Source: a virus. Taken from it: DNA of 31,748 nt. The stretch spans positions 1-31,748 of the IMG/VR virus record IMGVR_UViG_3300024581_003596; one strand, 5' to 3'. The notes below the pieces were generated by a model. It was not told the DNA's origin, did no database searches, and saw only the letters and a list, made by a program, of their open reading frames with translations. Position numbers and translations under genes: made by a program. Position 1 is the stretch's first letter, and each line of letters starts with the position of its first letter. Positions 2,909 to 28,255 of this stretch are shown piece after piece.

Positions 2909-4672
2909 TTATCCTTTATAGTTTGGGTGATGTCCATTATTTGGCATATCTTTTGGTGCTATCTTAGAATCTCTATTTCCTGACGGAGATGGCTTATATT
3001 GACTAGGTATTGAACTAACTTCATCAGAACTGCTTAAAGCTTTATCTTCATAATAAGTACCATCTGCTTTTTTCTTTAGTCGATAGAGTTGCTCAGTCCA
3101 TACATGTCCACAATTAACTCCGCCTTTGAAGCGAAATAAACTATAATTCTGACCTTTATGACCGAATGAATTATTTACTCCTTGAAAAGATGCCATATCT
3201 ATATCTTCTTTGCGATATACTACACCACTTCTTGTTCTATTCATCATTTTTTTACAAAAATCTCTTGAATTATCTGAAGTATATTTTTCTGTGTATTTGT
3301 ATCTAACCTTATAGATCGATTTATCTAATGAACTTTTTCTATTAGGATAGCTTTTAATAATATCAGAAAGCTTCTGTAAAGTGCTTTTATTTTTATTCTC
3401 TACGTTTTCTATCCAATTATTTAAATTAGCATTTTCTTCACTATATTCTCTTTCATCTATAAGCTCATATATTTCACTTATTTCTTCTCCTTGTAAATGT
3501 TCAAGTATATGATCTCCTTCAGCATCAGAAAAATCTTTTTTTAATTCAACATTAGATTCTTCTTCTTCTTGATCATCATTATTTTCTAAATCAGTAAATT
3601 CTAAAGGCTTTAATGTTTTAAAATATAAAGTCAAGCTTACTTCATTATATGCTAGTATTTCGTCAAAGGCATCGATCAATAATTCTCTAAAAGGATTTAT
3701 AACCATGTTTTCAAACAATATAAAGCTATCTCTTAACTCATCAGCATTAGAACTAAATCCATTGCTACTTGCTATTCCAAATAATAAAGGAGAAGTTATC
3801 TGATGTCCTAACATGATCTTTCTAAGACATTCTTCTGCTAATGTAGAATATAAATCTGGTGCATCATTTACTGGCATAGAATCAACTGTTGTAGCTGATT
3901 CACTATTATTATTAAAAGAAATTATGACTTTCTCACCATGTGTTCCAGTTAATTGATTAAGCACTTTAGATTTAATCATCTGCTTTTCTTCTTGAGATGG
4001 CTGACCGTTATTAAAGTTGATCAAAACACGACCGCTAAAGCCTGAATTTACTTCAGTAATTAAGTAGTCTGATATTGATTCTTCAAGAGTGCAATATGGC
4101 GTCGATCCCACATAATCTGGAAGACTATAATATTTTAAACCTACACTATATGGCTTAATTACATATAATTCTAAAGCATCATTAGAGCATCCATAAGCTG
4201 CTATTCTTTTTGGCTTATATTTTTTAATATCAGACCAATCATCAGAATAATAATAAGCTTCTATTTTACCTTCTTCATTACACTTTTCAGCACGTAAAAG
4301 CTGCACAGGCATGTGATGTACAGATGCAATTTTTTTACGATCTTTAGTATAAATTACCTGCATAGCACATTGACCAAGCATTTTAAGATCTGTGCATAAA
4401 TGTCTCACACAATCTTTACTAAATAAAGACATCATGTGGGCGTATTCATTTGGCTTTCTAGACGCATCTACTGCACTTAATCCTTTTCCATAAATTAAAC
4501 GGCTTACATTATTGATTATAGCATTATTTGTAGTGCTTTTAGTATAACAATCTATAAGAAAATTATAATAATCATTAGACTCTCCAAATTCTACCCAATC
4601 TTCACGTTTAGCTTCCTTTATTACAGGAGGCTCATAAGCTGCTAATTGCAATATATGTACATTATCACTCAT
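2909..4672 (-). CDS. Portal protein with C-terminal MuF/SPP1-gp7-like minor-head domain
   Basis: The frame is open to 4717. The MSDNVHIL start at 4672 overlaps the upstream stop by 8 nt (ATGAGTGA), which matches the genome-wide packing. Size is about 590 aa. The C-terminal segment SRDFCKKMM...FKGGVNCGHVW resembles the MuF-type Cys/His motif. The family call is from memory. Confidence 0.65.
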   Translation of the reverse strand: MSDNVHILQLAAYEPPVIKEAKREDWVEFGESNDYYNFLIDCYTKSTTNNAIINNVSRLIYGKGLSAVDASRKPNEYAHMMSLFSKDCVRHLCTDLKMLGQCAMQVIYTKDRKKIASVHHMPVQLLRAEKCNEEGKIEAYYYSDDWSDIKKYKPKRIAAYGCSNDALELYVIKPYSVGLKYYSLPDYVGSTPYCTLEESISDYLITEVNSGFSGRVLINFNNGQPSQEEKQMIKSKVLNQLTGTHGEKVIISFNNNSESATTVDSMPVNDAPDLYSTLAEECLRKIMLGHQITSPLLFGIASSNGFSSNADELRDSFILFENMVINPFRELLIDAFDEILAYNEVSLTLYFKTLKPLEFTDLENNDDQEEEESNVELKKDFSDAEGDHILEHLQGEEISEIYELIDEREYSEENANLNNWIENVENKNKSTLQKLSDIIKSYPNRKSSLDKSIYKVRYKYTEKYTSDNSRDFCKKMMNRTRSGVVYRKEDIDMASFQGVNNSFGHKGQNYSLFRFKGGVNCGHVWTEQLYRLKKKADGTYYEDKALSSSDEVSSIPSQYKPSPSGNRDSKIAPKDMPNNGHHPNYKG

Positions 4673-4997
4673 ATATAATAAATTCATTATTTGATGCCCT
4701 GCTAGTAAATTCACCATTATTAATTGAATAAGTAGCGACAGGCTGATTAGTGCAAAAAATACGATCTAGATGTACTATATCAGATCCATTTTTAATAGTA
4801 AGATCATAAAAATGATTTTCTTTAATATCAAAAGTAGCTGTTATTGTATCATAATAATCTCCTTGACTGCTTGATGCAATAGTTATTTCTACTTCACTAT
4901 TTGTTTGATCATCTCTTACAAACATGCTATCATACACCTGAGATCTAGGTATAAAACTAAATGTCTGCTCTGTTGCTATTTCTTGCAATATAATCAT
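4665..4997 (-). CDS. Hypothetical protein of the head module
   Basis: 110-aa ORF, translationally coupled to the portal gene. No motif recognised. Confidence 0.6.
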   Translation of the reverse strand: MIILQEIATEQTFSFIPRSQVYDSMFVRDDQTNSEVEITIASSSQGDYYDTITATFDIKENHFYDLTIKNGSDIVHLDRIFCTNQPVATYSINNGEFTSRASNNEFIIYE

Positions 4998-5401: not shown

Positions 5402-5480
5402 TGTGTGTTTTTTTAAGTGTGTTAATTATTAATTACAGTGCTAATATAGGCATAATGTATATACAAAAAAAGTTTTGCAG
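5402..5480 (-). promoter_or_regulatory. Promoter/leader cassette A: palindrome TGTATATACA (5456-5465), TAnnTTAG box (5441-5448), leader AACACACTTAAAAAAACACACA-ATG
   Basis: One of four near-identical cassettes; the others are at 19897-19965, 21868-21933 and 28180-28255. Confidence 0.55.
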
Positions 5481-6214: not shown

Positions 6215-7177
6215 TTAGTTAGCAGAATTTACGATTCCGTAAGTTACTACATCATCAACAATAGCATATTGAGCTCCTGCAGCCATTCTCATAATAATTC
6301 TAACATTATTAGAACCATCAAGATCTGACATATCTAACAATTTAACTTCTTGAAGATCACTTTGTAGTGAACATCCAAAGAATAAGTTAGATTTTTGAGC
6401 AGCTAAAGCTGTATTATCAGCAAGACCATTTGCCATGAAGATTTTAACACCGTCAAAAGTTAATGCTCCATTGTCATACCATTGAGTACCTTGAGCATTA
6501 GTACCATTAGCACCTAATCCAGAAGCACCAAAACCGCCCAAAGCTCTAATATAAGCTCTTGCAATATTTTGTGACACATAAATGTGAAGATCCTCAGCAC
6601 CATAGACTGTTGATGGAAGAGCATCGATTATACTTCCTAGCTCATCGATAACGTTCGCAGCAGTCACCGTAGTTCCAGCAACTTCTTGTGCAGCTGGTAA
6701 ATCTGCATCTACAGCTAATTGTGTCATGATACCATCATATTCACCTGATGTTCCTGTAGCTCCTCTCCAGAAATTTACTTCATTTCTAGCAGCAACTTTA
6801 GAAGCAACATATCCAAGAATATAATCTTCAAAAGATTTAGGTAAAGTATCAAAGCTTGAATATCCTTGCTCAATTCCTTGCCATGTATTATGAAAGTCAT
6901 TTTTGCAAATTTCAAGATTTACCATAAGATCTTTAACTTCAAGAACTCTTTCAGACAATGTGATAGCATCATCTGTTCTAGTAAAGTCACATGTAGCATC
7001 TGCTAAAACGTCTGTCAATGCAACTTTCTGCATGATCTGCTTAAATTTAATATTTGGAAGGATTTCAACTCCTCCTCTTTCAATAGTTGGGGCGCTTAAA
7101 AGAGCGGCCGCCACGTACTTACCTGCGAATTCACCTGCGTAAGTAGTAGTAATTGATGTAATTGATTTTTCTGCCAT
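6215..7177 (-). CDS. Major capsid protein, HK97 fold
   Basis: 320-aa ORF directly after an acidic scaffold gene. Size, Ala/Gly-rich composition and the segment LEVKDLMVNLEICKNDF are typical of HK97-type capsid proteins. Confidence 0.75.
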   Translation of the reverse strand: MAEKSITSITTTYAGEFAGKYVAAALLSAPTIERGGVEILPNIKFKQIMQKVALTDVLADATCDFTRTDDAITLSERVLEVKDLMVNLEICKNDFHNTWQGIEQGYSSFDTLPKSFEDYILGYVASKVAARNEVNFWRGATGTSGEYDGIMTQLAVDADLPAAQEVAGTTVTAANVIDELGSIIDALPSTVYGAEDLHIYVSQNIARAYIRALGGFGASGLGANGTNAQGTQWYDNGALTFDGVKIFMANGLADNTALAAQKSNLFFGCSLQSDLQEVKLLDMSDLDGSNNVRIIMRMAAGAQYAIVDDVVTYGIVNSAN

Positions 7178-19896: not shown

Positions 19897-19965
19897 TGTG
19901 TTTTTTTAAGTGTTTTATTAATTTGTATATACAAATATAACTATAATAATTAAACCAGAAAAGTT
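19897..19965 (-). promoter_or_regulatory. Promoter/leader cassette B: -7 box TATATTTG (19932-19939) fused to the 14-bp perfect palindrome TTTGTATATACAAA, then leader AAAACACTTAAAAAAACACA-ATG
   Basis: Read directly. It shares its core with cassettes A, C and D. Confidence 0.6.
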
Positions 19966-21867: not shown

Positions 21868-21933
21868 TTTTTAAGTGTTTATTAATTAATTATGATGCTA
21901 ATCTACTAAAAACGTATATACAAAAAAAGTTTT
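21868..21933 (-). promoter_or_regulatory. Promoter/leader cassette C: CGTATATACA (21913-21922), TAGATTAG box (21898-21905), leader TAATTAATTAATAAACACTTAAAAA-ATG
   Basis: Read directly. Cassettes C and A share the 24-nt string GTATATACAAAAAAAGTTTT on the plus strand. Confidence 0.55.
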
Positions 21934-26384: not shown

Positions 26385-26645
26385 TTATTGGTTTTTATAA
26401 TTGTTTAAAGCTGCTAAATAAGCCACTGCATCTAATAAGTTATCTTCTTTGTGATTATATGACTGTCTAGAAAGCTTTAATGCTACCATGCACATATACA
26501 TGTCATCAGCTGTTATCTTTTTACCAGTCGCCGCAGAAGCAATTACTGCAGCTCTTTCCATTCCTTCAGAAAAAGATCCATATTCTCTTTCCTTTTCTTC
26601 AGATCTTTCATTTATGATCTGATCTGCTTTTTGTAAAATATTCAT
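26385..26645 (-). CDS. Small helical protein, resembling the widespread phage family I recall as DUF6378 (often next to nucleotide-metabolism genes)
   Basis: 86-aa ORF. Pattern REYGSFSEGMERAA...ITADDMYMCMVALKLSRQSYNHKEDNLLDAVAYLA. The family name is from memory. Confidence 0.35.
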   Translation of the reverse strand: MNILQKADQIINERSEEKEREYGSFSEGMERAAVIASAATGKKITADDMYMCMVALKLSRQSYNHKEDNLLDAVAYLAALNNYKNQ

Positions 26646-26657
26646 TGATTATAATTT

Positions 26658-26729
26658 AAGGTGACGCTTTCAGGGAGGTGGGATTCCCCTACTCGCGCAA
26701 CACTTAAAAAAATTTTTGATTTTCCCACC
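26658..26729 (-). promoter_or_regulatory. GC-rich structured 5' leader (predicted H-type pseudoknot; candidate riboswitch or translational operator) of the modification operon
   Basis: Minus-strand pairings read by eye. GGUGGGA (26729-26723) pairs with UCCCACC (26683-26677). AGGGG (26690-26686) pairs with UCCCU (26676-26672). An imperfect outer helix pairs 26705-26695 with 26667-26658. The structure ends 12 nt before the ATG. Confidence 0.4.
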
Positions 26730-26742
26730 AGTTACAAATATA
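26730..26742 (-). promoter_or_regulatory. Promoter of the modification/replication operon, with -7 box TATATTTG (26735-26742)
   Basis: A TAnnTTTG box lies immediately after the stop codon of the upstream gene. Confidence 0.45.
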
Positions 26743-27120
26743 TTAAATTAATTCTTTATATAAGTTATTTTCTGTCCTACTTTTTATTTTATCTAGATCT
26801 CTTATTGTAGTAGCATGTAAAATATCTTTTTTAAGATCATAGGTTTTTTTCTTTATTTTCATCTTTCCTTCATAGCATGCTATATCTAATAGTAAAAGCT
26901 TATCATTATATGATCTTAACTGTTTATATTTTCTTATACCATGTAAAACAGTAGCATGATGATGTCCAAACATTTTACCAATACTTTCATATGTCATTCC
27001 AGATTCTCTTAATAAATTCCAAAAATACATTCTGCGATGTACATATTTTGGTTTTCTACTGCGACTTTTTAGATCATGTTTATCTATAAAGTATTCAACG
27101 TTTTTAATCAAGTCTTCCAT
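26743..27120 (-). CDS. DnaA domain-IV-like DNA-binding protein
   Basis: 125-aa ORF. YVHRRMYFWNLLRESGMTYESIGKMFGHHHATVLHGIRKYKQL parallels DnaA domain IV (ARQIAMYL.REL...SL..IG..FG.RDHTTVLHA..KI). Confidence 0.55.
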   Translation of the reverse strand: MEDLIKNVEYFIDKHDLKSRSRKPKYVHRRMYFWNLLRESGMTYESIGKMFGHHHATVLHGIRKYKQLRSYNDKLLLLDIACYEGKMKIKKKTYDLKKDILHATTIRDLDKIKSRTENNLYKELI

Positions 27121-28005: not shown

Positions 28006-28179
28006 TTATTTTGGCATTTTTAAATAATAATCCAATAATTGCGTTAAATCTTTTAAAGGCGTATTAGATTTTTCAGTTAAGGACAATAACAATTGCTCTG
28101 TTTCGTTTAATAATTTTTCTTTAGAAAGTTTTGATAAATTATTTAAACATTGATTTAATAATTCTTGTTGTGTTTTCAT
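28006..28179 (-). CDS. First early gene, 57-aa helical hypothetical protein (not in the ORF track)
   Basis: My own translation: MKTQQELLNQCLNNLSKLSKEKLLNETEQLLLSLTEKSNTPLKDLTQLLDYYLKMPK. It lies directly behind cassette D. Confidence 0.5.
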   Translation of the reverse strand: MKTQQELLNQCLNNLSKLSKEKLLNETEQLLLSLTEKSNTPLKDLTQLLDYYLKMPK

Positions 28180-28255
28180 TTTTTTAAGTGTTTTAATTAA
28201 TGTATATACAAATCTACTAATTATATTTTAATTAACTAACAAAAAATTGCACTTA
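28180..28255 (-). promoter_or_regulatory. Promoter/leader cassette D (main early promoter): -7 box TAGATTTG (28209-28216) fused to palindrome TGTATATACA (28201-28210), leader TTAATTAAAACACTTAAAAAA-ATG
   Basis: Read directly. It follows the terminator of the late operon. Confidence 0.6.

Follow-up and report, generated by a model that had tools for sequence, protein, structure and literature searches.

The window analysed here, that is the whole stretch of DNA, is a complete viral genome of 31,748 bp with direct terminal repeats and a G+C content of approximately 27%. All genes surrounding the leader element described in this study are located on the minus strand. On the upstream side lies a gene (26743–27120) for a 125-amino-acid protein with a helix-turn-helix domain of the DnaA C-terminal type (PF08299, E = 1.2e-11) and no match to a Q family. 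On the downstream side, a gene for an 86-amino-acid DUF6378 protein (26385–26645) heads a modification and replication operon, in which it is followed by a SAM methyltransferase, a thymidylate-synthase-like enzyme, a MazG protein, a 140-amino-acid open reading frame for which no family match was found, a DnaD-like loader and a primase/helicase. The two genes flank a spacer of 97 nt (26646–26742). In the interval 26500–26699, which includes the start of the downstream gene, the GC fraction is 0.385 compared with approximately 0.27 around it. No tRNA or tmRNA was found here.

Read on the minus strand, the spacer opens with the octamer TATATTTG (26735–26742), a putative promoter box of the Bacteroidota-type −7 form TAnnTTTG, placed directly after the stop codon of the upstream gene, so that the last stop codon of the upstream early operon abuts the box. 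Thus, the element stands right behind such a box and in front of the operon, as the first-pass annotation had proposed. The parts of the element follow in the order of transcription: the 5′ strand of a pseudoknot, GGUGGGA (26723–26729), a single-stranded linker (26706–26722) composed of the A-rich AAAAUCAAAAA and a run of seven U, and a long hairpin. The outer helix of this hairpin, P1, is formed by 26694–26705 and 26657–26667; inside it, AGUA (26690–26693) and GAAA (26668–26671) make up the two sides of an internal loop, and the inner helix P2 pairs GGGG (26686–26689) with CCCU (26672–26675). The apical loop holds the pseudoknot 3′ strand UCCCACC (26677–26683), the partner of GGUGGGA. UUAAAUUAUAAUCA comes after P1, and 12 nt separate the end of the outer helix from the ATG at 26645. 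The two pseudoknot strands and the imperfect outer helix (26705–26695 with 26667–26658) had already been assigned to these positions by the first-pass annotation. Its inner hairpin, AGGGG (26690–26686) with UCCCU (26676–26672), is possible in this copy as well, the register used by the family being shifted by one base. Our covariance model R1 matches 26644–26736 on the minus strand with 65.4 bits (E = 2e-11) and finds no other copy in the genome; a script that searched the genome for terminator loops complementary to upstream sequence found none either.

The word TCCCACC/GGTGGGA occurs twice in the 31.7-kb genome, both times in this spacer, where 0.48 occurrences are expected; at least two occurrences were seen in 9 of 100 shuffles. 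Single-sequence folding recovers the outer and inner helices with −20.5 kcal/mol, so the proposed helices are reproduced, but the energy itself is no better than that of shuffled controls (z = −1.25, second estimate −1.45; 22 of 200 shuffles were as good). In relatives z ranges from −0.9 to −2.8, and because these scores leave the pseudoknot unscored they are not decisive either way. P1 of the window is the most degenerate of the family, with 8 of 12 pairs in the family register, and the model score of 65 bits is the lowest among close relatives, most of which reach 85–100 bits. P1 can be extended here (UUUAAG with CUUAAA) to at most 9 nt from the ATG, and the linker carries AAAAUC where nearly all close relatives have ACAAUC. 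The internal loop bears, as judged from its bases, the signature of a loop E or sarcin-ricin (bulged-G) module, AGUA opposite GAA (26690–26693 and 26669–26671), a signature that close relatives and several distant ones share. Within 26657–26705, the sequence after P2 (CACCUUAAAUUAUAAUCAAUG) resembles the standard early leader of this phage (ACACUUAAAAAAAUG); the P1 3′ strand may be derived from this early-leader motif or may double as it.

Relatives of the element were collected by several routes. Loci reached through the downstream DUF6378 gene mostly lack it: among 80 such loci, two (L058 and L070) have a divergent, terminator-like leader with a kissing loop that was recognized by eye, and a convincing match to the covariance model was found in none, these two included. 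The leader is therefore not tied to the DUF6378 gene. Loci reached through the upstream helix-turn-helix gene, in contrast, gave homologous spacers in which matched changes were evident at once. From conserved words we built a DNA pattern, which retrieved 68 viral loci, about 60 of them real. As this pattern fixes the box and the internal loop, an independent set was gathered through the commonest downstream gene, which encodes a protein of approximately 190 amino acids matching primosomal and replisome-organiser PHROGs. Among 80 loci with this gene, 71 carry a covariance-model match that ends just before it, and in six further ones (L320–L325) the layout recurs in divergent form, with kissing loops, a 5′ hairpin and a terminator. 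Two loci (L276 and L312) are without the element and one has no upstream DNA; setting the latter aside, the element lies just upstream of the replisome-organiser gene in 77 of 79 relatives.

The helices are maintained by compensatory changes in all alignments, each of which was controlled by sliding the partner strands against each other and by 500 shuffles. In a plain MAFFT alignment of 38 members, 90.6% of the cells are paired compared with 40–47% after sliding, and 16 of 23 pairs have changed on both sides. The corresponding values are 88.1% against 38–48% with 22 of 23 pairs in a model-based alignment of 64 hits, and 93.1% against 38–50% with 18 of 23 pairs in the gene-anchored alignment of 71 hits, which is independent of the search pattern; in none of the three did any shuffle reach the observed pairing (0/500 each). 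RNAalifold, run unguided on the sequence-only MAFFT alignment of the 38 members, predicted P1 and P2. In P1, 12 of 12 pairs have changed on both sides in the model-based alignment and 10 of 12 in the gene-anchored one, many of them involving G-U, and the helix stays paired through G-U intermediates. All four pairs of P2 have changed on both sides (GGGG/CCCC, GGAA/UUCC, ACAG/CUGU, GGCA/UGCC, GGCU/AGCC, GGAG/CUCU and others). The pseudoknot exists in about 25 distinct complementary versions, among them GGUAGGA/UCCUACC, GCUGGGA/UCCCAGC, GGCGGGA/UCCCGCC, GGUCGGA/UCCGACC, GCUGGGG/CCCCAGC and many others, always of 7–9 bp and with a single mismatch in only a few members; in the gene-anchored set this helix is 92.5% paired, and five of its seven pairs have changed on both sides. 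An apical loop that pairs outside its hairpin, with compensatory changes, is what defines an H-type pseudoknot or kissing loop. The search for covarying homologues thus bears out the structured, pseudoknotted RNA that had been noticed on the minus-strand transcript, and we regard it as practically certain that the structure is real and conserved.

The pairs also tell which molecule is folded. P1 and P2 are rich in G-U: in the model-based alignment one pair is U-G in 41 of 47 rows, and two others are G-U in 16–17 rows. The frequency of G-U pairs shows that it is the transcribed (minus) strand and neither a duplex nor the opposite strand, on which these pairs would become A-C mismatches. This bears on the idea that GGTGGGA ... 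TCCCACC are inverted half-sites in DNA that a protein binds, for instance the helix-turn-helix protein encoded next door, or that they belong to a replication origin. Such an idea draws on a 7-bp inverted repeat beside a DnaA-domain-IV-like gene and upstream of replication genes, and on the pseudoknot, the pairs of which are almost all Watson-Crick. However, the half-site varies among its roughly 25 forms in phages whose helix-turn-helix proteins are 58–80% identical; one arm always falls exactly into the apical loop of a covarying, G-U-rich hairpin, and in distant relatives the other arm sits in the loop of a second hairpin, an arrangement that makes sense only for a folded single strand. We consider a DNA-level element extremely improbable. 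The helix-turn-helix gene is often, but not always, the direct upstream neighbour of the element. In many phages its stop codon adjoins the box, while others have extra genes between the two; the 125-amino-acid DnaA-domain-IV-like helix-turn-helix protein (in the window and in L089–L109) has a conserved C-terminal end ...LYKELI.

Across the family, the RNA is about 85–90 nt long. The box TA..TTTG is kept in the gene-anchored loci and its two middle bases vary (TAACTTTG, TAAATTTG, TACCTTTG, TAGCTTTG, TAATTTTG and TATCTTTG); a −33 promoter motif upstream of it is not evident. The first structured base, which belongs to the pseudoknot 5′ strand, follows about 4–14 nt after the box. Behind this strand, nearly all close relatives have ACAAUC and then a U-rich linker. 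In distant members (L110–L113, L058, L070, the second copy in L160 and L320–L325) the 5′ strand itself forms the loop of a small hairpin at the 5′ end, which makes the contact a true kissing loop. The small stems that folding predicts at this place in the close family do not covary, and we claim no conserved 5′ hairpin (P0) for the window copy. The long hairpin consists of P1 with 10–12 bp, the AGUA/GAAA internal loop, P2 with 3–5 bp and an apical loop of 9–10 nt that holds the pseudoknot 3′ strand. Loop-loop complexes such as ColE1 RNA I/II likewise accommodate seven or eight pairs in a loop of this kind. AGUA/GAAA is kept in the gene-anchored set too and is replaced in the most divergent members.

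The suggestion of the first-pass annotation that the structure is a metabolite-sensing leader was not supported. A riboswitch that binds SAM, folate or a nucleotide and controls the modification operon would be in keeping with the compactness of the pseudoknot, its place in a 5′ leader and the conservation of some unpaired bases (ACAAUC and the AGUA/GAAA loop), and with genes downstream in the window that use SAM, folate and nucleotides. Rfam 15 was scanned with all families, and no relevant match was obtained in the whole window at the gathering score. The permissive scan of 26550–26850 (E up to 10) returned six weak, unrelated families with a best E of 0.4 and no riboswitch class, which leaves the suggested resemblance to SAM-II and SAM-V cores without a counterpart; SAM-II (RF00521), SAM-V (RF01826), THF, ZTP and preQ1 all failed to match. 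A scan of 11 related loci (E up to 1) gave nothing. Furthermore, covariation in the pairing loops is unconstrained, the internal loop, although conserved, is a module common among RNA structures, and we saw no second fold to which a ligand could shift the RNA. Since their sequences vary freely, neither the pseudoknot nor the inner hairpin contains a conserved pocket. A generic metabolite riboswitch, for which we looked for a conserved pocket together with an association with genes of a single pathway, was likewise rejected, as neither of the two was found.

The gene context points away from a riboswitch as well. By far the most members stand before a gene for a replisome organiser or a homing endonuclease and not before SAM or folate enzymes. 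In a minority of phages, the modification genes form an insert that separates the leader from the replication genes. Altogether, we judge a metabolite-binding riboswitch very improbable. Two riboswitches resemble the element in part. The guanidine-II (mini-ykkC) riboswitch is a leader with two hairpins whose loops kiss, but its invariant ACGR loops form the ligand sites while the loops of the element are free to vary. In cobalamin riboswitches, too, an upstream loop pairs with the apical loop of a regulatory hairpin before the gene (L5-L13), but the element is without an aptamer domain, a ligand pocket and an Rfam match, and its loops covary instead of being conserved.

In several relatives a free-standing homing-endonuclease gene of the HNH or GIY-YIG type directly follows the element (L118, 7957–8463; L136, 1012–1485; L160, 4163–4633; L157, 5501–6010; L154, 3200–3781) and starts 6–10 nt past the end of the P1 3′ strand; apparently it is an insertion that separates the leader from the replication genes. 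Contig L160 carries two elements on the minus strand, 4631–4719 and 6826–6926, with unrelated pseudoknots (GUUACGG/CCGUAAC and CCUUCGAC/GUCGAAGG), the second with a clear 5′ hairpin. Several such gates per genome would therefore be possible, each with its own "address".

The 3′ end of the element suggests how it may act. Of 43 distinct full-length relatives, 40 have a U-run directly after P1, as in an intrinsic terminator, and the ATG of the next gene comes 6–19 nt past the end of the P1 3′ strand in full-length members. A simple promoter and terminator scan did not call the family hairpins, because their loops exceed the limit of the scan. With a U-run followed so closely by a gene, every transcript that enters the operon must cross the terminator-like hairpin; there is no room for a promoter between the two, so transcripts from the box as well as those from the early operon have to pass. 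For this reason we read the family as a promoter-proximal transcription gate, that is an attenuator, at the boundary between the early genes and the genes for replication and nucleotide metabolism. This is our best explanation, although we rate its chances as somewhat below even. We infer the transcription start, the termination and the gating role from sequence features: transcription would start a few bases after the TAnnTTTG box, and the same type of box precedes the early genes of the genome at a promoter-like distance. The 5′ strand, GGUGGGA in the window, would then pair with the apical loop of the long hairpin, and a gate that terminates would yield a compact RNA of approximately 90 nt. 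The pseudoknot might adjust termination, present a shape that a factor recognizes, or protect the 5′ end. How it would influence termination directly is hard to see, because it pairs with the loop of the terminator and not with its stem. Neither an alternative antiterminator pairing nor a candidate factor was found.

The window copy deviates from this picture. It shares the absence of the U-run with two relatives of the same gene order (L083 and L084); as UUAAAUUAUAAUCA follows P1, it is not an intrinsic terminator in the sense of a stable stem followed by a U-run. Since it keeps the fold nevertheless, termination cannot be the whole function. This brings in a cis-acting leader for stability or translation, in which the pseudoknot would lock the 5′ end of the mRNA against decay or P1 would limit the access of ribosomes to the first gene. 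Such a leader would agree with a pseudoknot strand within a few bases of the presumed transcript start, with a fold that outlasts the U-run in the window, and with a P1 that ends close to the ATG here and can be extended even closer. Most members, on the other hand, have an unstructured stretch between P1 and the ATG, 6–19 nt in all with the U-run included, and the terminator-like end, which is the rule, would need an explanation of its own. For the family as a whole we regard a cis-acting leader as unlikely. With its U-run lost and its P1 weakened, the window copy itself is most likely only a structured 5′ leader of the DUF6378, methyltransferase, thymidylate-synthase-like, MazG and replication operon, and a role in the stability or translation of the first gene is at most what can be claimed for it. 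A translational operator acting in cis on the first gene, the other function suggested by the first-pass annotation, may exist in this copy; it is not a common feature of the family.

The proposed gate has partial parallels in known systems. The lambdoid late-operon unit, with its PR′ promoter, a short 6S transcript that ends at tR′, and release by Q, likewise combines a promoter, a short transcript and a terminator-like hairpin just before an operon, often with a gene of the DNA-binding type directly upstream. In lambda, the 6S RNA has no conserved tertiary fold, and Q works by way of a DNA site and a pause close to the promoter. Here, in contrast, the RNA contains a covarying pseudoknot, the operon carries replication genes and not late genes, and we found neither a Q-like protein nor a binding site or pause signal. 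The layout also recalls cro-nutR-tR1-O-P, as a resemblance only. Transcription attenuation by antisense RNA, as in plasmid rep genes of the pT181 and pIP501 type, combines kissing contacts with an intrinsic terminator inside a replication-gene leader. In these plasmids a separate countertranscript acts as the kissing partner and redirects folding; in the element, one transcript contains both partners, and we found no alternative fold. The HK022 put RNA and the lambda nut sites are promoter-proximal hairpins of phage RNA between early and replication genes that govern the passage of terminators. The put and nut sites are not terminators themselves and have no loop-loop pairing; the leader element, by comparison, is terminator-like with loop-loop pairing, and its action on RNA polymerase is only putative.

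A further lead comes from the early genes of the window. Several early-gene cassettes on the minus strand (28180–28255, 19897–19965, 21868–21933 and 5402–5480) share a TAnnTTTG-type box, a palindrome GTATATAC right after TTTG and a leader AAUUAAUUAAAACACUUAAAAAAA just before the AUG. Related phages have palindromes of the type TGTATACA at the same place, and the position of these palindromes suggests that they are operators for a repressor. The U7 linker and the start of P1 (26699–26713) could act in trans as an antisense RNA that pairs with the early mini-gene leader AACACUUAAAAAAAUG and shuts off its translation; conversely, early leaders could open P1. A perfect match of 15 nt lies at 28178–28192 and overlaps the start codon at 28179, with further matches of 14 nt at 19901–19914 and of 13 nt before two more early genes. 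The duplex has −15.3 kcal/mol compared with −14.3 for the best of 100 dinucleotide shuffles, the closest relative has two 14-nt matches, and in one relative element and leader have changed together (to UUUCUAG and UUAGAAA, respectively).

Other observations speak against the antisense idea. In 27 contigs that carry both the element and early-type leaders, the seed of each contig performed no better than foreign seeds (typical rank 8–19 of 25), and lineages with other P1 sequences have no significant targets (p 0.3–0.9), the contigs being fragments, so that a missing target is weak evidence. Moreover, the leader motif ACACUU resembles the P1 3′ strand, and its ability to pair with the P1 5′ strand may thus follow from the hairpin itself. 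We consider the antisense RNA rather unlikely. Less likely still is a combination of both ideas in a self-contained RNA gate of a kind not yet described, in which the 5′ loop or strand would clamp the tip of the operon terminator. In this phage the early leaders, with their 15 nt of complementarity to the linker and the P1 5′ strand, would accumulate, bind the nascent leader in trans and disrupt P1; transcription would thereby shift from the early to the replication and DNA-modification genes, and the early leaders themselves would be silenced.

As to the distribution of the element beyond viral contigs, a scan of prokaryote genome contigs with one representative genome per species gave 64 pattern matches, of which only three were real by the model. 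These are two contigs from a Flavobacteriaceae MAG (metagenome-assembled genome) and one from a Lacinutrix MAG (L195, L201 and L233), and they may be phage DNA that was binned with its host. Marine Flavobacteriaceae as hosts would fit these contigs, the TAnnTTTG boxes and the lack of Shine-Dalgarno sequences. A blastn search with the element found no match to it in cultured phages; the single short alignment, to Flavobacterium phage MaF61, is confined to the AT-rich upstream part. The Olleya phage Harreka_1, which encodes a distant homologue of the helix-turn-helix protein, has no such element near that gene. Our literature searches yielded no description of such an element, and the leader RNA family is thus undescribed, being absent from Rfam and, as far as these searches reach, from the literature.

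In conclusion, a compact, covarying RNA fold in the transcribed strand precedes the replication genes of many of these phages and would be a new regulatory part. Gene regulation is almost unexplored in Bacteroidota phages, which are abundant marine and gut viruses; their hosts do not use initiation led by Shine-Dalgarno sequences and have unusual promoters. The finding corrects the tempting view of a DNA-modification operon controlled by a riboswitch. It provides a small, testable RNA for the effects of a loop-loop clamp on termination or RNA stability, and it points to the place where these phages switch from early to replication genes.
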